Part shown: in pieces, positions 23,970 to 43,220 of the stretch
Position numbering within the stretch: the first letter of the stretch is position 1
Layout of the letters: every line of letters starts with the position of its first letter
Sequence record: PV730300.1
DNA: 64,000 nt
Strand: one strand, 5' to 3'
Source: a phage
Position numbers and translations under genes: made by a program
Notes under the pieces: generated by a model
The model's input: only the letters and a program-made list of their open reading frames with translations
The model's database searches: none
Told to the model about the DNA's origin: nothing

Positions 23970-24044
23970 GGCCCTGTAGCTCAATGGGAGAGCTGTCGGC
24001 TCATAACCGATAGGTAGCTGGATCGAAACCAGCCAGGGCCACCA
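23970..24044 (+). tRNA. tRNA-Met (anticodon CAT)
   Basis: Manual cloverleaf: acceptor GGCCCTG/CAGGGCC, anticodon loop CTCATAA, CCA encoded. Confidence 0.7.
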
Positions 24045-24046
24045 AC

Positions 24047-24121
24047 GTCTTTATGGTGTAATGGATAGCACAGGAGTCTTCTAAACTCTTAGTCAAGGTT
24101 CGATTCCTTGTAAAGACACCA
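24047..24121 (+). tRNA. tRNA-Arg (anticodon TCT)
   Basis: Acceptor GTCTTTA/TAAAGAC, anticodon loop CTTCTAA, T arm CAAGG-TTCGATT-CCTTG. Confidence 0.65.
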
Positions 24122-24122
24122 G

Positions 24123-24306
24123 AACATTTTAACATGAATTAGCTCAAGTGATTTGAACCCACTACTGATCATGGTGGCAGAGAATGAGGCAAGTATGTCA
24201 GACATTATAAACAAAGGCCACGGTTATATTAGAAGACATAAATGCTCGAAGAGCACCGTTCGTTGAGAACGGGGGTTGGTGGAGTCACCATTCATGGTAA
24301 AATGTT
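24123..24306 (+). ncRNA. candidate structured small RNA 2
   Basis: 16-nt terminal helix AACATTTTAACATGAA (24123-24138) / TTCATGGTAAAATGTT (24291-24306), 15 of 16 paired, enclosing several hairpins. Confidence 0.35.
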
Positions 24307-24317
24307 TTAAAAAACTA

Positions 24318-24347
24318 TTGACAACTAACATTATTTTATGTTAGATT
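24318..24347 (+). promoter_or_regulatory. sigma70-like promoter (internal to the tRNA cluster)
   Basis: AAACTATTGACA at 24318-24323, 17 nt, TGTTAGATT-type -10. Confidence 0.45.
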
Positions 24348-24355
24348 ATAAGTAT

Positions 24356-24446
24356 GGAAGGGCAAATCGACGTGGCGACGAAAACGGTCTTGAAAACCGC
24401 CGAGCTTGAAAGAGCCTTGGGAGTTCGACTCTCCCTCCTTCCGCCA
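24356..24446 (+). tRNA. tRNA-Ser (anticodon TGA), class II
   Basis: Acceptor GGAAGGG/TCCTTCC, anticodon loop CTTGAAA, long variable arm, CCA encoded. Confidence 0.7.
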
Positions 24447-24451
24447 GATTA

Positions 24452-24537
24452 GGTAGATTGGTGAAATGGTAGCCACGACAGTTTGCTAAACTGTAGTCGG
24501 AAACGGCGTGTAGGTTCGAGTCCTACATCTACCGCCA
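24452..24537 (+). tRNA. tRNA-Ser (anticodon GCT), class II
   Basis: Acceptor GGTAGAT/ATCTACC, anticodon loop TTGCTAA, long variable arm. Confidence 0.7.
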
Positions 24538-24667
24538 AGTTCTTTTTAATATAGCTTACTTTAATAGAGTAAACTTTCGGCAGATGGCCCCCACCATCTT
24601 ACCGATAACTCATAGTTAGTGGTGTGAACACTGGCTATTTTAAAAAGAATTTAAATATTAGTATTTA

Positions 24668-24755
24668 GGTGAGTTAATTCCGTAGGGGTAGCGGGGCAGA
24701 CTGTAAATCTGTTATCATTGCGATTCGGGTGGTTCGACTCCATCACTCACCACCA
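24668..24755 (+). tRNA. tRNA-Tyr (anticodon GTA), class II
   Basis: Acceptor GGTGAGT/ACTCACC, anticodon loop CTGTAAA. Confidence 0.7.
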
Positions 24756-24761
24756 AATTAA

Positions 24762-24847
24762 GATGAGTTGGCTGAATGGTTTAAGCGGCGGACTGTTAAT
24801 CCGTGTTCGAAAGAACGATATAGGTTCAAATCCTATACTCATCGCCA
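24762..24847 (+). tRNA. class II tRNA, isotype uncertain (anticodon loop reads CTGTTAA, i.e. GTT)
   Basis: Acceptor GATGAGT/ACTCATC, T arm ATAGG-TTCAAAT-CCTAT, about 15-nt variable arm; anticodon assignment ambiguous by hand. Confidence 0.45.
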
Positions 24848-24937
24848 GAATTATGGACTTGTAGAGTTAAGGTAAACCCCCAGTCGCCAAGAGGCTTCTG
24901 AAATTGCAGGTATCGAATCCTGCCGAGTCCCAGCTTT

Positions 24938-25012
24938 GCTCCTATAGTATAATGGCTATTACAACGGTTTTGTAATCCGTGGATCTCTGTTCGATTCAGA
25001 GTGGGAGCACCA
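24938..25012 (+). tRNA. tRNA-Thr (anticodon TGT)
   Basis: Acceptor GCTCCTA/TGGGAGC, anticodon loop TTTGTAA, T arm CTCTG-TTCGATT-CAGAG. Confidence 0.6.
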
Positions 25013-25287
25013 ACACAACATTAAGAGCACTGTGATTGATCGTCGTATCCTGTGCACAAGGTCTGTTCGAAAGACAGTGTTCTTAGTATTGTGTTGATCA
25101 CACAAAAAGAGTTACCTGAAACTTGACCGGAGTAGGGTTGGATGGGGCAAAAGAAGAAGCGGCTCTCCCATCGACAGCAACGAAGAATAATATTTGACTT
25201 TGGTTTTGTATTATTTTAAGTTAGCTTACCGAACGTAGGGCTAGTCACCCAATGGGATACTCGTCACTGTCCCACTCAATAAAACTA

Positions 25288-25317
25288 TTGACAACCAATA
25301 GTAAAATGTAGTATAGT
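25288..25317 (+). promoter_or_regulatory. sigma70-like promoter (internal to the tRNA cluster)
   Basis: AAACTATTGACA at 25288-25293, about 18 nt, TATAGT. Confidence 0.45.
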
Positions 25318-25328
25318 AAAGATGTAGG

Positions 25329-25403
25329 GCGTTCTTGGTGTAGCGGTAGCATTCCGTCCTTCCAAGTCGGCGGCACGAGTTCGATCCTCGTAGAACGCTC
25401 CAA
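25329..25403 (+). tRNA. tRNA-Gly (anticodon TCC)
   Basis: Acceptor GCGTTCT/AGAACGC, anticodon loop CTTCCAA, T arm ACGAG-TTCGATC-CTCGT. Confidence 0.7.
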
Positions 25404-25500
25404 ATTATTTAATAAAGGGTTGCCAGAAAACTTTCTCTTTTACTCATGGTTTTCTCCTTCTCTCACACCTCTTCTGGTTGCCCTTCATTAAATGATTTAT

Positions 25501-25576
25501 TGGTTTGTAGTGTAGTCCGGTAGCACACGACACTTTGACTGTCGTAGGTTTGGTTCAAATCCAGACAGACCAGCCA
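25501..25576 (+). tRNA. tRNA-Gln (anticodon TTG)
   Basis: Anticodon stem CGACA/TGTCG, loop CTTTGAC, T loop TTCAAAT. Confidence 0.7.
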
Positions 25577-25581
25577 TATAA

Positions 25582-25658
25582 CGGAATTTAGCTCAGTTTG
25601 GTAGAGCATACGCTTTGGGAGCGTAGGGTCGCAGGTTCGAATCCTGCAATTCCGACCA
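25582..25658 (+). tRNA. tRNA-Pro (anticodon TGG)
   Basis: Acceptor CGGAATT/AATTCCG, D stem GCTC/GAGC, anticodon loop TTTGGGA, T arm CGCAGG-TTCGAAT-CCTGC. Confidence 0.8.
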
Positions 25659-25664
25659 ATTTAA

Positions 25665-25738
25665 TGTTTCGTAGTTCAATGGTAGAACCCACGACTGATA
25701 ATCGTGAGACACAAGTTCGATTCTTGTCGAAACAACCA
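25665..25738 (+). tRNA. tRNA-Ile (anticodon GAT)
   Basis: Acceptor TGTTTCG/CGAAACA, anticodon stem CACGA/TCGTG, loop CTGATAA. Confidence 0.75.
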
Positions 25739-25740
25739 GT

Positions 25741-25810
25741 TTCCCGTTAGACTTACAGGATAAGAGTTCCACAGCTTATTGTGATGCTGGTTCGAATCCA
25801 GCACGGGATA
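25741..25810 (+). tRNA. putative tRNA, anticodon not assignable by hand
   Basis: Canonical T arm GCTGG-TTCGAAT-CCAGC and pairing acceptor ends, but no clean anticodon arm could be folded. Confidence 0.3.
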
Positions 25811-25816
25811 CCTAAT

Positions 25817-25895
25817 AGCGGGATAGAGGAGTCTGGTCGTCCTCGCCAGTTTCATATGCTGGAGATCATCGGTTCGAATCCGATTCCCGCCTCCA
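25817..25895 (+). tRNA. tRNA-Met (anticodon CAT), possibly initiator-like or Ile2-type
   Basis: Anticodon loop TTCATAT, T arm ATCGG-TTCGAAT-CCGAT, A1-C72 mismatch at the top of the acceptor stem. Confidence 0.6.
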
Positions 25896-36874: not shown

Positions 36875-38248
36875 ATGGCAACTTTTCGTGAAAAGGTAGC
36901 AACCGTAACTTTACTGTATGGTGCTACATCAATTCGTGAAACCCAGTTCGATATTCCCCTGATCCTTACAGGTCAGAACGTAACTGGCGAAGCGATTCAA
37001 TATTACTCTTCTTCCGATGCACTTTTGGAAGCAGGTTATGGATTAAATGATCCAGCGTATATTATGGCAGTCAAACTGTTTAACGGTTTGTTCCCACCAG
37101 ATCAAGTCATGGTTGGTAAGCGTGAAGTTACAAACTTTACTCTAACTCCAATCGTAGAAGATAGTGCAACTTACACAATTACCATCAAAAATGGTACCAA
37201 GAAAAAAGAATTTAAATTCATTGCTGATGACACTGCAACTGCACAAGAGATTGTAGTTGGTCTGACTGAAATGATCAATGCAGATCTTGTTTATGGCCCA
37301 CTGTTTACAGTAGCTAACAACGGCGCTGCAATGACTTTCACTCCAGTAGAAGGTAAGTTTGGTTCTATTGACAGCACAGGTTTCACTCAAGAAACTGTCT
37401 ATGCTAATGCTATTACGGAAGATATCGCTGCTCTGCATGATATTGATAGTAGCTGGTTCTGGACCCTTTCAGATTCCCATGAAACAGAAGATGTTCTAGC
37501 TTTGGCTGCATGGGTAGAAGAGAATGATAAAGTTTACTTCTTCTCTAGCTCTGAACCTGGAATTAAAACGAAAGCAGAAGATAACGTTCTGGAACGACTG
37601 AATGACCTCGGTTATAATAACACTTGCTTTGCTTTGTGGATGACCGATGCAGATTCTGTATTCCCAGAAGCGGCAGTTGTTGGTGCAATCTGTTCTCGTC
37701 AACCTGGTTTAACTACTCTTCACGGTAAAACACTGGTAGGTGTAGAGATCGAGAAACTGGATCAGACTTCGGAAAACAATATTGTTCAACAGAACGGTAA
37801 CATCTATCGTAAAGAGCATGGAACTCTGTTCTATCGTGATGGATTGATGGTTAGCGGTTTCTTTGTTGACTATGTTGTTCATGCTTTGTGGTTTAAAGCT
37901 CGCACAGAAGAATCACTGTTTACACTGTTTAAACAACAGTCTATGCTGGGTGGTGGTGTTCGTGCTACTTCAAACGGTCTGGCTTTGATTCGACAAGCTG
38001 TTCTGGCTAACCCGATCCAAGTAGGTATCCTCAACGGTTCCATCGCTAATGAAGTTGTTACTTCTGAAGAGACTGGTTTGCGTGTCGATCTGAAACCTAT
38101 TGTTTATATTCCTTCTCGTGCCGATATGACTGATGCGCAAATCAATGCTCGTCTGGTCGATGGGATGAAGATTGAATATGTTTACGCTGGCTTCTTCCAT
38201 TACGTTAAAGTTCAGGTCAACGTCCTGACTAACCGTACTGCAAACTAA
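36875..38248 (+). CDS. tail sheath protein (putative)
   Basis: 457 aa, high-expression codon usage, immediately upstream of a tube-sized gene. Confidence 0.5.
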   Translation: MATFREKVATVTLLYGATSIRETQFDIPLILTGQNVTGEAIQYYSSSDALLEAGYGLNDPAYIMAVKLFNGLFPPDQVMVGKREVTNFTLTPIVEDSATYTITIKNGTKKKEFKFIADDTATAQEIVVGLTEMINADLVYGPLFTVANNGAAMTFTPVEGKFGSIDSTGFTQETVYANAITEDIAALHDIDSSWFWTLSDSHETEDVLALAAWVEENDKVYFFSSSEPGIKTKAEDNVLERLNDLGYNNTCFALWMTDADSVFPEAAVVGAICSRQPGLTTLHGKTLVGVEIEKLDQTSENNIVQQNGNIYRKEHGTLFYRDGLMVSGFFVDYVVHALWFKARTEESLFTLFKQQSMLGGGVRATSNGLALIRQAVLANPIQVGILNGSIANEVVTSEETGLRVDLKPIVYIPSRADMTDAQINARLVDGMKIEYVYAGFFHYVKVQVNVLTNRTAN

Positions 38249-38252
38249 TACG

Positions 38253-38275
38253 GCGGGGGTTAAGCCCCCGTTATC
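38253..38275 (+). terminator. terminator-like hairpin after the sheath gene
   Basis: CGGGGG-TTAA-CCCCCG hairpin with a weak T tract. Confidence 0.4.
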
Positions 38276-38294
38276 AAAATAAAGAGGATCTATA

Positions 38295-38774
38295 ATGGAT
38301 AAAATGCTTACTGGCGTAATGGCCTACGACCCATCTCAAGTTATCCTTTCATTAGGTGGTTGGGAACCGTGGGGTTTTGCGGCTGATACTAAAATCGTTA
38401 TTGCTAAATCTAACGATATTATCAACCCTTATGCAGGGACTGATGGCGACGTTTCACTAGCTTTGAGTCGTAACCGTTTGGGAACACTCACAATGTCTTT
38501 GCAACGCACATCTCCAGCTAACGAAGTACTTGCAACATATGCACAAACAATGTATTCTACTCGTCAAGTAGCATTCAGCGTTTACTTGGAAGACCCACGT
38601 GGCTATTACATTAGCACGATTGGATGGATTCAAAGTCAGCCTGAAGATACTATTGGCGAAATGATTACAGAGAACCAATGGGTTATTGGTCTTAAAGATG
38701 CAAGCCTTCTGCGTAATGAAGTTGGTGTAGGTTTGAGCACCCTTAACTCAATCTCTGCTCTGACAATTCAATAA
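38295..38774 (+). CDS. tail tube protein (putative)
   Basis: 159 aa following the sheath gene. Confidence 0.45.
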   Translation: MDKMLTGVMAYDPSQVILSLGGWEPWGFAADTKIVIAKSNDIINPYAGTDGDVSLALSRNRLGTLTMSLQRTSPANEVLATYAQTMYSTRQVAFSVYLEDPRGYYISTIGWIQSQPEDTIGEMITENQWVIGLKDASLLRNEVGVGLSTLNSISALTIQ

Positions 38775-38781
38775 TAAATAA

Positions 38782-38803
38782 AGGGCAGAAATGCCCTTTT
38801 TAT
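38782..38803 (+). terminator. intrinsic terminator
   Basis: AGGGCA-GAAA-TGCCCT hairpin followed by TTTTT. Confidence 0.6.
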
Positions 38804-38819
38804 CATTAGAGAGGAAAAT

Positions 38820-39302
38820 ATGTCACAAGAACAAGATAACACAATTCAAAAATATGCTCGACCAGAAGAAGTAGTTGAGATTCCGTTAGATGGAAACAGA
38901 TCTGTTACTTTCCGTATTATGAAGTGGAGTCCATCTAAAGTGTTTGACAGGATTCCAGAATTGGGTAGTGTTCTGGTTGTTCCTATGACTATGTATAGCA
39001 CAGCAACAATGTCCGCAGACGAAGACCTTGAGTCACGTATTGCTATGGCACTGATCCAACTTTTTGCGGGTTTGGAAGAAAAGAATTTAACTGTCTTTTT
39101 GCGTAAAATTTTAGATGAGGTTTATACTCAAGACGGTTATAACGTTGCAGAAAATTTTGATGAATTATTTATGGCTCACCCAGAACTAGTGTTAGATCTT
39201 ACTGCTAAAGTTCTGGAGGTAAACTACGGCCCTTTTTTCAAACGAGGTTTCGGAAAACTGTTCACACAGCTTCAGGCGATGACGAGTTTAGCAGCAAATT
39301 AA
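38820..39302 (+). CDS. tail assembly chaperone (putative) with candidate -1 frameshift extension to 39568
   Basis: Slippery heptamer T_TTT_TTC at 39233-39239 in frame 0; the -1 frame is open from there to 39568. Confidence 0.45.
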   Translation: MSQEQDNTIQKYARPEEVVEIPLDGNRSVTFRIMKWSPSKVFDRIPELGSVLVVPMTMYSTATMSADEDLESRIAMALIQLFAGLEEKNLTVFLRKILDEVYTQDGYNVAENFDELFMAHPELVLDLTAKVLEVNYGPFFKRGFGKLFTQLQAMTSLAAN

Positions 39303-39564
39303 CACCTGCGATTGAACATGCTATCGACACAGCAACGAAAACCCTTACTTTGAAGTGGTATGAGGTTATTCTTTGCAAAGTCGTTAAAGATACCTCGGAA
39401 ACACTGAAAACATTGGATAACTACGGTGTAGATTATCTTTTAAAACTATATGAGTATTTAACATACGAAGAGTATGTTGAAGCCATGTATGTTAAAGACA
39501 CTTCAATAAAGAGAAAACATCAAAACCAAACAAATAAAATGTCAGATTTGTTTAAGAAACTTGT

Positions 39565-39593
39565 TTGACTTTAAAACGTCACGGTGGTATACT
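39565..39593 (+). promoter_or_regulatory. sigma70-like promoter (TTGACT-N17-TGgTATACT) upstream of the endonuclease ORF
   Basis: TTGACT at 39565-39570, TATACT at 39588-39593. Confidence 0.5.
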
Positions 39594-39620
39594 TCTTTTA
39601 TTGAATAGAGGAGGAACATC

Positions 39621-40937
39621 ATGCGTGGCGTTTTAAATATTATAGGTCAAGACCCAAACAATCCAGACAAAATTCTGGTTACATGCTCTATCTGTTCAGA
39701 AGATAAAGAACTTTATCCTCAACCTTTCAGCATGTTCAAAAGTAACTTTGGTAGGCAAACACCTTGTGGTTGCTCAAAATGTCCAAAACTAAGTGAAGAT
39801 CAAGCCTACATTGTAGCAAAGAGAGCTACAGAAGCTTTAGGATACACTTTTTTAGGTTGGAGTAAAGAATACACAGGCTCAAGTTCTACAAAAATCCGTT
39901 GTGTTTGTCCTGAACATGGGGAATGGAACACTGGTATAATTTCAACGATTCGGAAGGGTGTGGGTTGTCCAAAGTGTGTAGATCCTAGGAAAAGAAAAGA
40001 TTTAGTAAAAGCTGAAGATTTCTTGGCAACAGGCTTCTTTGAAGATGGGACTACTTTTACCAAATCTGAAAGAAAAGATAAAAATGGTTGGAGTCCTTAT
40101 TGGTTTGTTACCTGCCCTACATGTTCAAATGATAAGTTTGTAAAAGCTGGACTTTGCTCTGGTATCTTTGAAGGCATGAAGTCTAATCTTTTGAAGGGTG
40201 CTAAACCTTGTCGTTGTTCTTCAAGGTATGTATACACTGAAGAGCAATATATTTTACGAATTAACACTGAAACACCTTATAGCTTTATTCGTTGGATTGG
40301 GAAGTTTAAAGGTAATCGCTCAAAAGTTGTAGTTTTTTGCGAAGAACATGGCGGTGAGATAGAGATGACTGTTTTTGGTTTGTTATCGGGAAACCGTTGT
40401 ATTACTTGTCACGGACACAAACCGAAACCAGAGACTGACATGAAAGAACAATTGAAAAAGGTTTGTGAGGAACGTGGATACACTTTTGTAAAGCTTATTG
40501 ATTACAAATCAAATAAGAGTTCTTTTCAATACTCTTGCAAAACCCACGGCATCCAACAAATATCAATCACAAACTTTATACACGGTGAACAAGGTTGTCC
40601 AGAATGTAGAGGTAAAAATCAGACCTATGCTTATATTCACCTGGTGGAAGATGAGGGTCTTGGTATTATTGGTCTTAAATTTGGAATAACAAAAAATCCA
40701 AGAATAAGAATAAGGCAACAGAATCGACTTGCTAAATATAAACTACGCAAGTTTAAGTTATATAGATTTGAAACTGTGGCAGCTTGTCGCACCGCAGAGA
40801 AAGAAGTGAAAGACGTTTTACCTTGCGGAGTTTTCTCCCAACAAGACATTCCAGACGGGTGGACAGAGACAACTTATATCTACAACCTGGAAAACATTAT
40901 GAAAATCTTTGAAGATAATGGAGGAATACTTTGTTAG
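39621..40937 (+). CDS. homing endonuclease-like protein: five tandem Cys-rich zinc-ribbon repeats plus C-terminal T5orf172 / GIY-YIG-like domain
   Basis: Repeated Cys-pair zinc-ribbon modules (e.g. CPEHG...CPKC, CEEHG...CITC, CKTHG...CPEC); C-terminal YIHLVEDEGLGIIGLKFGIT...R...Q pattern; own ribosome-binding site (GAGGAGG); lies directly 5' of the intron core. Confidence 0.5.
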   Translation: MRGVLNIIGQDPNNPDKILVTCSICSEDKELYPQPFSMFKSNFGRQTPCGCSKCPKLSEDQAYIVAKRATEALGYTFLGWSKEYTGSSSTKIRCVCPEHGEWNTGIISTIRKGVGCPKCVDPRKRKDLVKAEDFLATGFFEDGTTFTKSERKDKNGWSPYWFVTCPTCSNDKFVKAGLCSGIFEGMKSNLLKGAKPCRCSSRYVYTEEQYILRINTETPYSFIRWIGKFKGNRSKVVVFCEEHGGEIEMTVFGLLSGNRCITCHGHKPKPETDMKEQLKKVCEERGYTFVKLIDYKSNKSSFQYSCKTHGIQQISITNFIHGEQGCPECRGKNQTYAYIHLVEDEGLGIIGLKFGITKNPRIRIRQQNRLAKYKLRKFKLYRFETVAACRTAEKEVKDVLPCGVFSQQDIPDGWTETTYIYNLENIMKIFEDNGGILC

Positions 40938-40994
40938 AAATTAACGCCTTAACTTAGGGGCTAATGTGTAGTGATACACATTATCAACTTTGTG

Positions 40995-41185
40995 AATTGC
41001 TGGGACACCCTTAGAGCCACACTACCACTGCGAATCGAAAGATGAAGCCACGGTTTGAAAAGTGTGTGGATTGGGTAATCAGCAGCCAAGCTCCGTTTAG
41101 GAGAAGGTTCAACGACTATCCCGTAAGGGAGTAGGATCAAGTGGTCCGAAGCGCAAAGCGTCTCATGTAGATGAAGATATAGTCT
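40995..41185 (+). ncRNA. group I intron catalytic core (P, Q, R, S elements)
   Basis: P-like AATTGCTGGGAC (40995-41006), Q AATCAGCAGC (41077-41086), R GTTCAACGACTA (41107-41118), S AAGATATAGTCT (41174-41185), in canonical order, with GACTAT/ATAGTC able to form P7. Confidence 0.7.
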
Positions 41186-41264
41186 AATCTGTAGGGAAAC
41201 TTACAGCAGCGAAAGCGGGGAAGAATTAACGAATCTTCCCGAATACAATGCAAAAATTAGTAAC

Positions 41265-43220
41265 GTGGTTACGTTTAAGGTGGACAAGAACAGTCTCAAG
41301 GAAGCAAAAGATGCCGTGTTGAGTGTTCAGAAGTTTGCAAATAAAATGCAACCCACTATGAACATGACCAAGTTTAGACAACAAATGAAAGAGATTGAGC
41401 GTGAACTTAAGAAAGCTCAAACTCAAAGTCAAAAACCTATGCGAGCACCTACTCCCGCTGGAGCGGGTGCTCCTGTAGGTGGATCTGGCAGACCTAGAAC
41501 TCCTAAAACCCCGCAAGGAAGAGAAGAAGAAAAAGCTCGTAAAGCGGCTGAACGCGAAGCTAAAGCAGCAGCACGTAGGGAAGATTTAGGTAATCTTCGT
41601 TTGCAGAACTTTAACTACCGAGCAAAAGCATTTAGTAAAGCCAGTCCTGGCGCTATGCAAGAAGCTAGAGACGTTATGGGTAAAGCTGTAGAGCAATATA
41701 AGAAGGGTGAAATAACTCTTCAACGTATGAACCAAGCTCTTGCTCACCAGTTAGATGCTTTACGCAGATCTCATCGTGAAAAGAATGCTGAAATAGAAGA
41801 CGAGGTTCGCGGTCGTCGCCGTATTCGTAGAGAGCTAGAAGCAGAAGCTAAAATGCGTATACGTATGCGAAACCGTGAACTTAGAGATATAGAACGCAAC
41901 CGTAAGCGTGAATTAGCTCAGCAAAAACGTGATCGTGATCGTCGATATGGACAATTAAAAGAAGGTGCAGCAGGTCTTAATCCACGCATGATTGCATCCT
42001 CTTTGATAGGTGCTGGACTGTTTGCAGGTGGTTCTGTAGTTGGTAACACTTTGATGAATACTAACGAAAGAATTAAAATGGTTAGTCGCGGTGCTGAAAA
42101 CGTCCAAACGAATGCTAACTCTATTTTAACAATGACCGCATGGGGTGAACAAAACGGTGTAGACTCGGCAAATATCATTAAAGCAATAGATAACATTAAA
42201 GACGTTCGTGAACGTCTAGGTAATACCATGATGAACACCAAATGGAACGCAAAAGAAGGGAAATGGAAAGGTGGTGATAACGGTATTACTGATATTATGA
42301 ATGCTTTTGGTTGGAACCCCGATCAAATAAAACATTTGCAAAATGACCCGTTAGCTTTTATCCAAGCCACTGTTAATGAAGGCGAACGTCGAGGCATGAA
42401 CTCTGCTCAAATCGGGCGACTTCTTGAAAACCTTGGTGATGACCTTATGCACTACCAACGTATGTTTAGTAAAAACGGCGAAGGGTATAACGAAGTATTG
42501 AAAATGCTTCAAAGAACAGGTGCAACATTAACTCAAGAACAAATAGATGCTTCTAAAGAGTTTACTCGTTTTGCTGCAACAGTTCAGCTTGTAGGTCAAG
42601 GTATGCAGAACCATTTCCTGGAAGGTTTTGTAAAAGCTTTACCTAAAGATGATTCTTGGTTGGATAATGTTAAAGTGCTAGATCAGTTCGCCAAAGATTT
42701 AGGTGAAGAACTTGGTAAAACAACAGTTCAACTTGGTGGTTTTGCTAAAGAATTGGGAGATGGTTTCGGATCTTTTACCAATTGGCTTAAAGAAACATTC
42801 CCCGATACCTTCGGAGACAACACAGATCCTAATAAATCTATGGCACAAAAAGCATATGAGGCAACGCAAAGTGGAGACAGTAACCCTGTAGCAGATTGGT
42901 TGTACAATTTAACAGGTATTGATACACAAGATATTGGTCGTATGTGGAGAGGAGAGCAAACAAGGACACGTGCTTTTGGATTTGGTAATCCTCTTGAGGA
43001 TTTACGTGAATCAGCCTATACACCTAACGTAAGTTTGGCTCGTAATCAACCTGTTGTTGAGAATACGGTAGCAATACCAAGTGATCTTATCAAAGTTACG
43101 ATCAGCCCTTCTTCCGAGTTTGGAAATATTCTTGATGCAAGAATTCAAAACAGCGGAAATAGCATTTTCCAACGTTTGTCTCTTTCAACTCTAAGTGGAC
43201 AATCTAACACTGGTGGTTAA
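41265..43220 (+). CDS. tail tape measure protein (putative); 5' end probably supplied by splicing
   Basis: 651 aa, coiled-coil and basic-rich, followed by a strong terminator; the listed GTG start has no ribosome-binding site and the frame is open upstream to 41175. Confidence 0.55.
   Translation: MVTFKVDKNSLKEAKDAVLSVQKFANKMQPTMNMTKFRQQMKEIERELKKAQTQSQKPMRAPTPAGAGAPVGGSGRPRTPKTPQGREEEKARKAAEREAKAAARREDLGNLRLQNFNYRAKAFSKASPGAMQEARDVMGKAVEQYKKGEITLQRMNQALAHQLDALRRSHREKNAEIEDEVRGRRRIRRELEAEAKMRIRMRNRELRDIERNRKRELAQQKRDRDRRYGQLKEGAAGLNPRMIASSLIGAGLFAGGSVVGNTLMNTNERIKMVSRGAENVQTNANSILTMTAWGEQNGVDSANIIKAIDNIKDVRERLGNTMMNTKWNAKEGKWKGGDNGITDIMNAFGWNPDQIKHLQNDPLAFIQATVNEGERRGMNSAQIGRLLENLGDDLMHYQRMFSKNGEGYNEVLKMLQRTGATLTQEQIDASKEFTRFAATVQLVGQGMQNHFLEGFVKALPKDDSWLDNVKVLDQFAKDLGEELGKTTVQLGGFAKELGDGFGSFTNWLKETFPDTFGDNTDPNKSMAQKAYEATQSGDSNPVADWLYNLTGIDTQDIGRMWRGEQTRTRAFGFGNPLEDLRESAYTPNVSLARNQPVVENTVAIPSDLIKVTISPSSEFGNILDARIQNSGNSIFQRLSLSTLSGQSNTGG

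Follow-up and report, generated by a model that had tools for sequence, protein, structure and literature searches.

The tail gene cluster of a phAPEC8-like phage raises the question of how a reading frame that opens close to the tail assembly chaperone gene's 3' end is translated, i.e., as a separate small protein or as an extension of the chaperone that ribosomes reach by slipping into the -1 frame. We examined this locus in a window of 64,000 nucleotides of phage DNA (sequence record PV730300.1). The source genome is a Phapecoctavirus with 99.3% identity to Escherichia phage nepoznato, the phage is described as a phAPEC8-like myovirus, and the genome is AT-rich, with a GC content of 39%. 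From the sequence comparisons set out below, we hold it to be very probable that ribosomes undergo a programmed -1 frameshift, of the type known from lambda G/GT, in the chaperone gene of this myovirus.

The chaperone gene and its slippery run

The genes are arranged in the order sheath (36875-38248), tube (38295-38774), chaperone (38820-39302), -1 frame extension (to 39568) and tape measure (from 40931). The chaperone and extension pair sits between the tube and tape measure genes, the placement by which the lambda G/GT class is recognised, and relatives without the intron have the start of their tape measure gene approximately 20 nt 3' of the extension. The features around the chaperone gene are as follows.

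38780..38807, + strand: terminator-like hairpin with a T-run in the tube/chaperone interval (8-bp stem AAAGGGCAGAAATGCCCTTT, then TTATCATT)
38820..39302, + strand: TAC-N, the zero-frame tail assembly chaperone gene (ATG start, predicted product of 160 aa and 18.2 kDa)
39215..39220, + strand: Shine-Dalgarno-like GGAGGT, a possible 5' stimulator, 12 nt 5' of the heptamer
39230..39239, + strand: slippery run C_CCT_TTT_TTC (conserved heptamer T_TTT_TTC at 39233-39239 and overlapping C_CCT_TTT at 39230-39236)
39239..39568, + strand: -1 frame extension (109 codons and TGA), which joined to residues 1-140 would give TAC-NC (predicted 249 aa and 28.8 kDa)
39239..39302, + strand: dual-coding overlap (last 20 TAC-N codons in the zero frame; the -1 frame encodes the long product's linker)

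TAC-N matches the Pfam family PF21822, Phage_TAC_15 (E 4e-23, 82.7 bits against a cut-off of 22), over its residues 29-143 and profile positions 3-125 of 127, as well as phrog_3840 (tail assembly chaperone; E 3e-50), and the RefSeq product name was also counted as support for this assignment. The hairpin in front of the gene likely reduces how much transcription reaches the chaperone and tape measure genes, and the PATM and FBKp34 records show annotated terminators at the equivalent spot.

The sequence at 39230-39239 is CCCTTTTTTC, in which the zero frame reads CCT (39231-39233), TTT (39234-39236) and TTC (39237-39239). With this phasing, the heptamer T_TTT_TTC (39233-39239) has the X_XXY_YYZ register that a -1 tandem slip requires, and it stands 22 codons ahead of the chaperone stop. 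This verifies the coordinates and register given in the preliminary description, which had singled out this heptamer near the 3' end of ORF 38820-39302. The second heptamer, C_CCT_TTT, is likewise in register, and a slip there would lead to an identical protein. Together they form the sole heptamer site between the upstream -1 stop at 39206-39208 and the zero-frame stop. Both U_UU.U_UU.C and C_CC.U_UU.U belong to the H_HH.U_UU.Y class, which measurements in E. coli rank as most efficient for -1 shifting (PMC4066793).

Starting at 39209, the -1 frame stays open until the TGA at 39566-39568, i.e., for 119 codons, 109 of which follow the heptamer, so that the claim of a frame open from the heptamer to 39568 was also borne out. 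The window's open frames of 100 codons or more contain 89 in-frame X_XXY_YYZ heptamers, among which this one is an outlier in the -1 open run that follows it (109-110 codons compared to a median of 6 and a next best of 44). At the stop-triplet frequency of the window, an open stretch of 119 codons would arise with a probability of about 1e-3; on these two grounds the open frame exceeds what chance would give. A fortuitous T-run, or a homopolymer sequencing error, combined with a fortuitously open frame might be expected in an AT-rich genome, where T-runs are common, and CCT, TTT and TTC are all frequent codons. However, the T6 run is identical in more than 130 independently sequenced genomes, and the frame carries the coding signature and cross-subfamily homology described below. 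Given this conservation, the coding signature and the outlying open run, we regard chance or artefact as effectively refuted and attach almost no probability to it.

Conservation and coding signature of the -1 frame

The heptamer is invariant in all of the more than 40 relatives compared from the Stephanstirmvirinae and Vequintavirinae, across chaperone identities down to approximately 30%. The comparison covered eight Stephanstirmvirinae, four Vequintavirinae and 32 IMG/VR loci, and all of these have an in-frame T_TTT_TTC followed by a -1 frame that is open for 102-136 codons and ends just before the tape measure gene, although the relatives are phylogenetically related and the sequence counts therefore overstate the number of independent observations. 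The codon ahead of Phe-Phe varies (CCT Pro, TGT Cys or TCT Ser) while its last base is always T, and the final C of the heptamer is invariant even though this base is a wobble position for Phe and begins a -1 residue that varies (Gln, His or Arg). Synonymous differences at the three heptamer codons amount to 0 of 198, compared to 0.47 in the rest of the chaperone gene; part of this conservation is not independent of zero-frame coding, because Phe-Phe is conserved as protein. Within the dual-coding overlap synonymous variation is lowered, to 0.22-0.31 compared to 0.47, with the zero-frame wobble as the most variable position.

In the stretch past the zero-frame stop and before any -1 start codon (39302-39349), differences at the first, second and third -1 codon positions amount to 0.34, 0.28 and 0.67, a pattern like that of the remainder of the extension (0.38, 0.25 and 0.61), which shows that this start-less stretch has a protein-coding substitution pattern in the -1 frame. 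The alternative is that the extension is a separate small protein of 72-85 aa, with a start at TTG 39350, a start at ATT 39311, or translation by ribosomes that re-initiate past the stop of the chaperone. Gene callers have treated it in this way, as every inspected record annotates a separate small CDS, and phrog_16039, which the C-terminal 72 aa of the extension match, corresponds to the 72-aa version. Yet the 16 codons past the chaperone stop vary mainly at the third -1 position, the 37 codons 5' of TTG 39350 are conserved as protein, and homology reaches back to the heptamer. With the -1 peptide as query, tblastn alignments to other genera start at residue 1 with 59-66% identity, and the -1 ORF of rV5 is homologous to the extension (E 2e-12) from the RFRK motif directly past the site. 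Furthermore, in every relative the opening of the -1 frame lies just 9-36 nt 5' of the heptamer.

The start codons themselves also argue against two genes. The first ATG, GTG or TTG in the -1 frame is TTG 39350, whose preceding bases, CAGCAACGAAAACCCTTACT, hold no Shine-Dalgarno match; the other candidate starts lack one too, whereas neighbouring genes have strong ones. The first start codon varies among relatives in both place and type, and annotators have variously chosen TTG, ATG and even ATT. The earlier view that the frame has no credible independent start is upheld by this lack of a Shine-Dalgarno sequence and by the inconsistent positions in relatives, and we consider separate initiation very unlikely. 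The fused product has no counterpart in a collection of 5.8 billion proteins, where only chaperones of 158-175 aa were matched, covering at most 64% of the fusion, and none of the inspected public records annotates it; its absence from that collection only means that it was never annotated.

Some other candidates were set aside. A shift into the +1 frame would lead into a frame that is closed after 18-52 codons in relatives. The conserved GGTTTCGG motif 3' of the heptamer was considered as a possible RNA element. Between subfamilies, however, its spacing from the heptamer shifts by one codon, and for this reason it better fits conservation at the protein level (GFG, RFR). A search for relatives of known structure in the PDB at E values up to 1 returned none, and the extension folded alone without an alignment gave a mean pLDDT of 47.7, too low for interpretation.

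The site, its register, the open -1 frame, the conservation of both and the coding signature are seen in the sequences, from which we infer the slip itself, its efficiency and the roles of both products. We propose that most ribosomes would read 38820-39302 to its end and release the 160-aa TAC-N, while a minority would slip by -1 on CCT TTT TTC, the P-site and A-site tRNA-Phe on UUU UUC re-pairing with UUU UUU. Alternatively, in this subfamily, tRNA-Pro and tRNA-Phe on CCU UUU could re-pair with CCC UUU, with an equal outcome. After the slip, reading would resume at CAA 39239 in the -1 frame and continue to the TGA at 39566-39568. The predicted junction of the 249-aa TAC-NC, ...NYGPFF|QTRFRK..., is identical for either overlapping heptamer, and its trans-frame tryptic peptide would be VLEVNYGPFFQTR, with VLEVNYGPFFK as the zero-frame counterpart.

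The same proteins could be made by another mechanism, transcriptional slippage, in which the polymerase adds an extra U on the T6 run and the resulting subset of mRNA is read straight into the extension. The conserved core is a homopolymeric T6, polymerase slippage acts on homopolymer runs (PMC5009743), and the GTTTTT motif is common to related clades (PMC12846349). Against this, in more than 40 sequences the run is exactly T6 and never T7 or more, and the flanking C and the register are fixed too. T6 is also short for a bacterial polymerase, for which productive slippage is said typically to require about nine. Programmed transcriptional slippage calls for a long homopolymer, usually of nine or more A or T, or else for a defined slippage cassette that has a hairpin upstream; the run at this locus is shorter, and folding of the region revealed no significant local structure. 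In Vibrio phage S4-7, the equivalent place is occupied by A_AAT_TTT, a tandem-slip heptamer without a long homopolymer, although the annotated start of its -1 ORF, 18 nt past the heptamer, makes this case no more than suggestive. Since the run also belongs to a motif class that is efficient for ribosomal -1 shifts in E. coli (PMC4066793), we judge transcriptional slippage to be unlikely and retain the ribosomal frameshift.

Candidate stimulators and related systems

The preliminary description had pointed to a downstream stem-loop or pseudoknot as something to look for, and neither folds of the site region nor an alignment of 11 relatives yielded a significant or conserved structure. Single-sequence folds were no better than shuffles (z of -0.57 for 39240-39330 and 0.01 for 39200-39400). 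The consensus fold of the 11 relatives gave a sole hairpin of -1.1 kcal/mol, which includes the U-run and shows no covariation or compensatory pairs; it was rejected as a stimulator on account of its weakness, its use of the slippery U-run in the stem and its lack of covariation. These folds placed no stable conserved structure 5-9 nt past the heptamer, where the 3'-stimulated class has one, and the efficiency of frameshifting may therefore be low. Lambda G/GT reportedly needs no downstream structure either.

Upstream, GGAGGT at 39215-39220 has a predicted duplex of -10.6 kcal/mol with the 3' end of 16S rRNA, and a role for it in frameshifting is possible. GAGGT is found at an equal distance in 17 of 23 distinct relatives and GGAGA in two more, while GAGGT is absent from the phiTE, W70 and FBKp34 types. 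The Glu codon in this motif is GAG in 21 of the 23, compared to just 26% of Glu codons in the genes of the window. In this subfamily the U6C run is doubled into the overlapping heptamers C_CCU_UUU and U_UUU_UUC. Tentatively, the locus may represent a structure-free, 5'-stimulated cassette, in which a GAGGU that selection on a rare GAG Glu codon keeps 12 nt upstream sets, together with the U6C run, the ratio of short to long chaperone; such a cassette could be an ancient, fixed signal common to the Stephanstirmvirinae and Vequintavirinae and, as the literature would have it, to the Vandenendeviridae and Andersonviridae.

The closest model is lambda G/GT, with the conserved class of Xu, Hendrix and Duda (2004), as cited in PMC5009743 and PMC8785237. 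Lambda likewise has two overlapping ORFs in the interval from the major tail (tube) gene to the tape measure gene, the second of them in the -1 frame without a start of its own. The claim that the locus matches the conserved chaperone frameshift upstream of tape measure genes is supported here by gene position, Pfam family, register, the start-less -1 ORF, conservation and coding signature. It differs from lambda in its heptamer (T_TTT_TTC with C_CCT_TTT, compared to G_GGA_AAG), in belonging to a 150 kb phage with a contractile tail, in a Phage_TAC_15 protein without detectable similarity to gpG, and in the Shine-Dalgarno-like motif upstream. By analogy with gpG and gpGT, we would expect the N-terminal part common to both products to coat the tape measure protein, the rarer C-terminal domain to bring in the tube protein, and the virion to contain neither product. 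The cryo-EM component list of the phi92 virion holds gp130, gp131 and gp134, and the chaperone homologues gp132 and gp133 are not in it (PMC13450770), as expected for a chaperone; this is an indirect indication, from a relative whose chaperone is approximately 75% identical.

In the myovirus P2, the tail chaperone E/E' reportedly shifts -1 on T_TTT_TTG. As so described, P2 shares with this phage a contractile tail, a U6N heptamer close to the chaperone gene's 3' end and an extension that ends before the tape measure gene, and it is set apart by a different protein family and a heptamer ending in G, where ours ends in C. A -1 frameshift at GTTTTT has been proposed for the chaperone genes of the Vandenendeviridae (Pakpunavirus Adele) and Andersonviridae (PMC12846349, 2025). 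Those loci likewise have a poly-T near the 3' end of TAC-N and a -1 frame that runs through a so-called intergenic region and a small hypothetical gene, and their virion modules are evolutionarily related to those considered here; the Vequintavirinae sites, which read TGTTTTTTC, contain GTTTTT. The loci in PMC12846349 exclude the Stephanstirmvirinae and Vequintavirinae chaperones, whereas here a full X_XXY_YYZ heptamer, its register and synonymous-site evidence are added. The E. coli dnaX gene combines A_AAA_AAG with a Shine-Dalgarno-like element upstream and a stem-loop downstream (PMC4344849). It resembles our locus in a -1 tandem slip in E. coli and a Shine-Dalgarno-like sequence approximately 10-14 nt 5' of the heptamer, and differs in its heptamer, in its stem-loop, of which we found no counterpart, and in a shift that truncates the protein, whereas here it would lengthen it.

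Frameshifts of this kind are already well known in phages and the understanding of frameshifting is unchanged; in this phage group the site is unannotated. The literature was searched for a frameshift described in Phapecoctavirus, Stephanstirmvirinae, phi92, rV5 or Vequintavirinae, and none emerged; the matches to 'frameshift' were host-receptor mutations or references. All inspected records of phAPEC8-like, phi92-like and rV5-like phages present the locus as a chaperone and an unrelated small hypothetical protein. Recognising the site would correct these annotations, drop the false hypothetical family phrog_16039, define a 249-aa product for structural and assembly work on phi92-type tails, and extend the recently proposed poly-T chaperone frameshift to two further subfamilies. 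The frameshifted chaperone is probably essential for correct tail length, as gpGT is in lambda. More than 130 genomes of the phage collection have the extension, and many of these phages are therapy candidates.

The endonuclease insertion and the tape measure gene

Downstream of the extension, the tape measure gene is preceded and interrupted by two separate elements.

39565..40937, + strand: free-standing endonuclease cassette (promoter-like site at 39565-39593, TTGACT-17-TATACT; ORF 39621-40937)
40931..40949, + strand: tape measure exon 1 (TTG start; MLEINA and the first base of a Ser codon, by comparison with intron-less ESCO5)
40950..41250, + strand: group I intron without an ORF in the tape measure gene (Rfam RF00028, 92.9 bits)
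41251..43220, + strand: tape measure exon 2 (predicted spliced product of 662 aa, the partner protein of the chaperone)

It had been suggested that the extension ends exactly where an intron/endonuclease insertion begins. This holds for the endonuclease cassette, as divergence from intron-less relatives begins at 39567, inside the stop codon of the extension (TAA to TGA); it does not hold for the group I intron, a separate element located 1.4 kb beyond the end of the extension, within codon 7 of the tape measure gene. The cassette is missing from almost all relatives, and its insertion left the extension ORF intact to the last codon, which we count in favour of the frameshift. The endonuclease ORF encodes 438 aa with five CapR-domain matches, a weak T5orf172 match and a match to the phrog_681 endonuclease. 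The phi92 homologue of the tape measure product, gp134, is the virion tape measure protein (PMC13450770). In the intron, P1 takes in the exon end ...GCCU, the last intron base is G and the spliced frame is intact; the tape measure sequence of the intron-less ESCO5 reads ...AACGCCTCCAAAATT...

The chaperone gene and its slippery heptamer

The window derives from a phAPEC8-like myovirus of the genus Phapecoctavirus, subfamily Stephanstirmvirinae, and its 38200-41400 region is 99.3% identical to Escherichia phage nepoznato.

Genes leading to the tape measure gene
36875-38248, sheath gene
38295-38774, tube gene
38820-39302, chaperone ORF, between the tube and tape measure genes

The chaperone ORF was found as previously described; it has an ATG start and 160 aa and matches Pfam PF21822 (Phage_TAC_15; 82.7 bits, cut-off 22) as well as phrog_3840, 'tail assembly chaperone'. 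A slippery heptamer, T_TTT_TTC, had been reported in its frame (the zero frame) at 39233-39239, and the bases 39230-39239, CCCTTTTTTC, bear this out: the zero-frame codons are CCT, TTT and TTC (Pro138, Phe139, Phe140), therefore the heptamer lies in the X_XXY_YYZ register needed for a tandem -1 slip. A second heptamer, C_CCT_TTT (39230-39236), overlaps the first and is likewise in register, and slipping on either gives the same peptide, ...NYGPFF|QTRFRK...

The -1 frame, closed upstream by TAA (39206-39208), is open from 39209 to the TGA at 39566-39568, in line with the preliminary description of a frame open from the heptamer to 39568, and reaches 266 nt beyond the zero-frame stop. With stop triplets at the window's frequency of 0.055, 119 consecutive open codons would arise with a probability of ~1e-3. 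As a test of chance, all 89 in-register X_XXY_YYZ heptamers within open frames ≥100 codons long were taken from the window: the median -1 open run behind them was 6 codons, the two overlapping chaperone heptamers had 110 and 109, and the longest at any other heptamer was 44. That the site reflects chance or a sequencing error can hardly be credited, given a T6 run identical in more than 130 genomes. The +1 frame is closed.

The phage carries a cluster of 10-11 tRNA genes at 23970-25895 (two Met, Arg, Ser, Asn, Thr, Gly, Gln, Pro-UGG, Ile). As tRNA-Phe is absent from this cluster, host tRNA-Phe would have to serve in the slip. At the overlapping heptamer, C_CCU_UUU, the phage's own tRNA-Pro(UGG) could take part.

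Conservation of the site and translation of the extension

Comparison was made with seven other Stephanstirmvirinae from GenBank (ESCO5, phiWec190, Klebsiella phage phi1_175008, PATM, FBKp34, Citrobacter Tr1 and AV123), four Vequintavirinae (rV5, GAP31, phiTE and W70) and 32 IMG/VR loci (~20 distinct), the latter retrieved by chaperone alignment and 31-100% identical to the window chaperone. In all relatives compared, T_TTT_TTC stands 22-36 codons ahead of the chaperone stop in the zero-frame register, and the -1 frame opens just 9-36 nt before the heptamer and continues for 102-136 codons past it, ending shortly before the tape measure gene. The residue ahead of Phe-Phe is Pro (CCT), Cys (TGT) or Ser (TCT), its third base being T throughout; the heptamer's last C is invariant despite occupying a Phe wobble position, and the -1 residue that this C begins varies (Gln, His, Arg). 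Among 12 Stephanstirmvirinae, the rate of synonymous differences in codon pairs for identical amino acids was 0.47 over chaperone codons 1-120, 0.22-0.31 where the frames overlap after the heptamer, and 0/198 in the heptamer's three codons. Because the T and C bases are fixed while the residues on either side of Phe-Phe vary, and synonymous differences are missing, these alignments show selection on the heptamer nucleotides themselves, beyond the Phe-Phe residues. The distant Vibrio phage S4-7 has A_AAT_TTT at the equivalent place; the resemblance is only suggestive, since the annotated start of its -1 ORF lies 18 nt past the heptamer.

The extension, i.e., the -1 frame ORF 39239-39568, was said to have no credible independent start, and this stands: its first ATG, GTG or TTG is the TTG at 39350, preceded by CAGCAACGAAAACCCTTACT, in which a Shine-Dalgarno match is absent; neighbouring genes have GAGAGGA, GGAGGA or GAGGA at proper distance from the start. 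The first -1 start codon changes position among relatives and never has a Shine-Dalgarno sequence. Public records are inconsistent in starting the small 'hypothetical protein' 3' of the chaperone, using ATT, ATG or TTG at various positions, and that of ESCO13 (NC_047770; locus 673-930) annotates ribosome-binding sites for both neighbouring genes and none for the small ORF. The family matching the final 72 residues of the extension, phrog_16039, has unknown function and was made from the separately annotated small ORF.

In tblastn searches the 109-residue -1 peptide aligned from residue 1, whose codon directly follows the heptamer, and shared 59-66% identity with sequences of other genera; in the rV5 -1 ORF, homology begins at the RFRK motif (26% identity, E 2e-12). 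Pairwise differences were counted per -1 codon position in a codon alignment of the 12 Stephanstirmvirinae. Segment 39302-39349, past the zero-frame stop and ahead of any start codon in the window phage, gave 0.34, 0.28 and 0.67 at positions 1, 2 and 3, the same coding signature as the remaining extension (0.38, 0.25, 0.61). The overlap (39239-39301) gave 0.40, 0.26 and 0.23, with the zero-frame wobble varying most, as expected where both frames code and the -1 frame supplies a tolerant linker. Homology, substitution pattern and start codons together indicate that translation enters the extension from upstream. That a small protein is initiated independently is contradicted by this evidence and by comparative conservation, and is highly improbable.

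Proposed mechanism and stimulatory elements

At the level of sequence, the slippery site and its register are established, as are the open frame, the conservation, the coding signature and the missing independent start. Site, register, conservation and coding signature support the proposed match to the conserved chaperone frameshift upstream of tape measure genes, and we consider a functional programmed -1 ribosomal frameshift in the chaperone gene very probable. A minority of ribosomes would slip -1 on U_UUU_UUC (or C_CCU_UUU), giving TAC-NC, the long trans-frame product (249 aa, 28.8 kDa), beside the short chaperone TAC-N (160 aa, 18.2 kDa). By analogy with lambda gpG/gpGT (PMC5009743), the shared N-terminal part would bind the tape measure protein, the C-terminal domain of TAC-NC would recruit the tube protein, and neither chaperone product would remain in the virion. 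In a 2026 cryo-EM study of phi92, the virion components include gp130 (sheath), gp131 (tube) and gp134 (tape measure), with gp132 and gp133 unlisted (PMC13450770); these two are homologues of the chaperone ORF and the extension ORF, and the list is consistent with the lambda analogy.

Sharma et al. count H_HH.U_UU.Y motifs, of which the heptamer is one, with the most efficient -1 motifs in E. coli, and IS elements also use U_UU.U_UU.C (PMC4066793). Transcriptional slippage on the T6 run would produce identical proteins; it is nevertheless improbable, as the run is short and constant in length, is followed by a fixed 3' C and matches an efficient ribosomal motif.

A search for a downstream stem-loop or pseudoknot, as the preliminary description had suggested, found no supported structure: MFE z-scores were -0.57 and 0.01, and the consensus fold of 11 relatives was a -1.1 kcal/mol hairpin that takes in the U-run, without compensatory changes. 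The 24 nt behind the heptamer are highly conserved, but the spacing between the heptamer and their conserved GGTTTCGG core is 6 nt in one subfamily and 9 nt in the other, a shift which indicates that the constraint acts on the protein in both frames (GFG and RFR). Upstream, GGAGGT (39215-39220) lies 12 nt from the heptamer, with a predicted duplex of -10.6 kcal/mol with the 16S 3' end. GAGGT recurs at equal distance in 17/23 distinct relatives and is missing from three types; the Glu codon in the motif is GAG in 21/23, GAG making up only 26% of Glu codons in window genes. Given this conservation and codon preference, a dnaX-like 5' stimulator is a possibility.

The chaperone frameshift is textbook knowledge (Xu, Hendrix and Duda 2004, as cited in PMC8785237 and PMC5009743). 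For Vandenendeviridae and Andersonviridae, a December 2025 paper proposed a -1 site of the same kind, placed at an invariant GTTTTT. It noted a relationship of both families to Vequintavirinae and Stephanstirmvirinae, whose chaperone locus lay outside its analysis (PMC12846349). Our literature search returned no description of the site for Phapecoctavirus, phi92-like or rV5-like phages, all GenBank/RefSeq records inspected annotate two separate CDS at the locus, and a collection of 5.8 billion sequences held no protein spanning both halves. We regard the site as an unannotated case of a known type, common to at least two subfamilies. The biology itself is as expected and brings no surprise; the gain is a corrected annotation and a defined true long chaperone in a phage group popular for therapy.

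Between the tube and chaperone genes lies a terminator-like hairpin (38780-38807; hairpin 38780-38799, AAAGGGCAGAAATGCCCTTT plus a T-run), and the records of PATM and FBKp34 annotate terminators at the matching place. The hairpin may reduce transcription reaching the chaperone and tape measure genes, which would bring chaperone expression down further relative to tube and sheath.

The downstream endonuclease cassette and intron

The extension had been described as ending where an intron/endonuclease insertion begins. With boundaries set against the intron-less relative ESCO5, this holds for the endonuclease cassette but not for the intron, which is a separate element.

Features downstream of the extension
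39565-39593, promoter-like site TTGACT-17-TATACT, start of the endonuclease cassette
39621-40937, free-standing endonuclease ORF, 438 aa, with a strong ribosome-binding site ahead
40931 (TTG) to T40949, tape measure exon 1
40950-41250, group I intron, ORF-less, 301 nt (Rfam RF00028, 92.9 bits)
From C41251, tape measure exon 2

Similarity to ESCO5 ends within the extension's stop codon, TAA in ESCO5 and TGA (39566-39568) in the window; the cassette was inserted inside this codon, turning the TAA of relatives into TGA and keeping the ORF to its last codon, a minor additional hint that the ORF matters. Matches of the endonuclease are to the CapR domain (five), to T5orf172 (weak) and to phrog_681, and the cassette's final codons extend across the tape measure gene's TTG start (40931).

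The intron, the only group I intron detected in the window, splits the tape measure gene (40931-43220) in codon 7; its P1 pairs the exon end GCCU and its 3' end is G. The spliced protein has 662 aa and an N-terminus, (M)LEINASKISNVVTFKV, identical to that of ESCO5. In the nepoznato RefSeq record the gene begins at GTG 41280 and the intron is left unannotated. Free-standing endonucleases paired with ORF-less introns are known from 'collaborative homing', which the present arrangement resembles. Among 50,697 phage records, endonuclease and intron occur together only in nepoznato. Each query matches two places in the nepoznato records MN850571/NC_052658, so a second related intron and endonuclease lie elsewhere in that genome.
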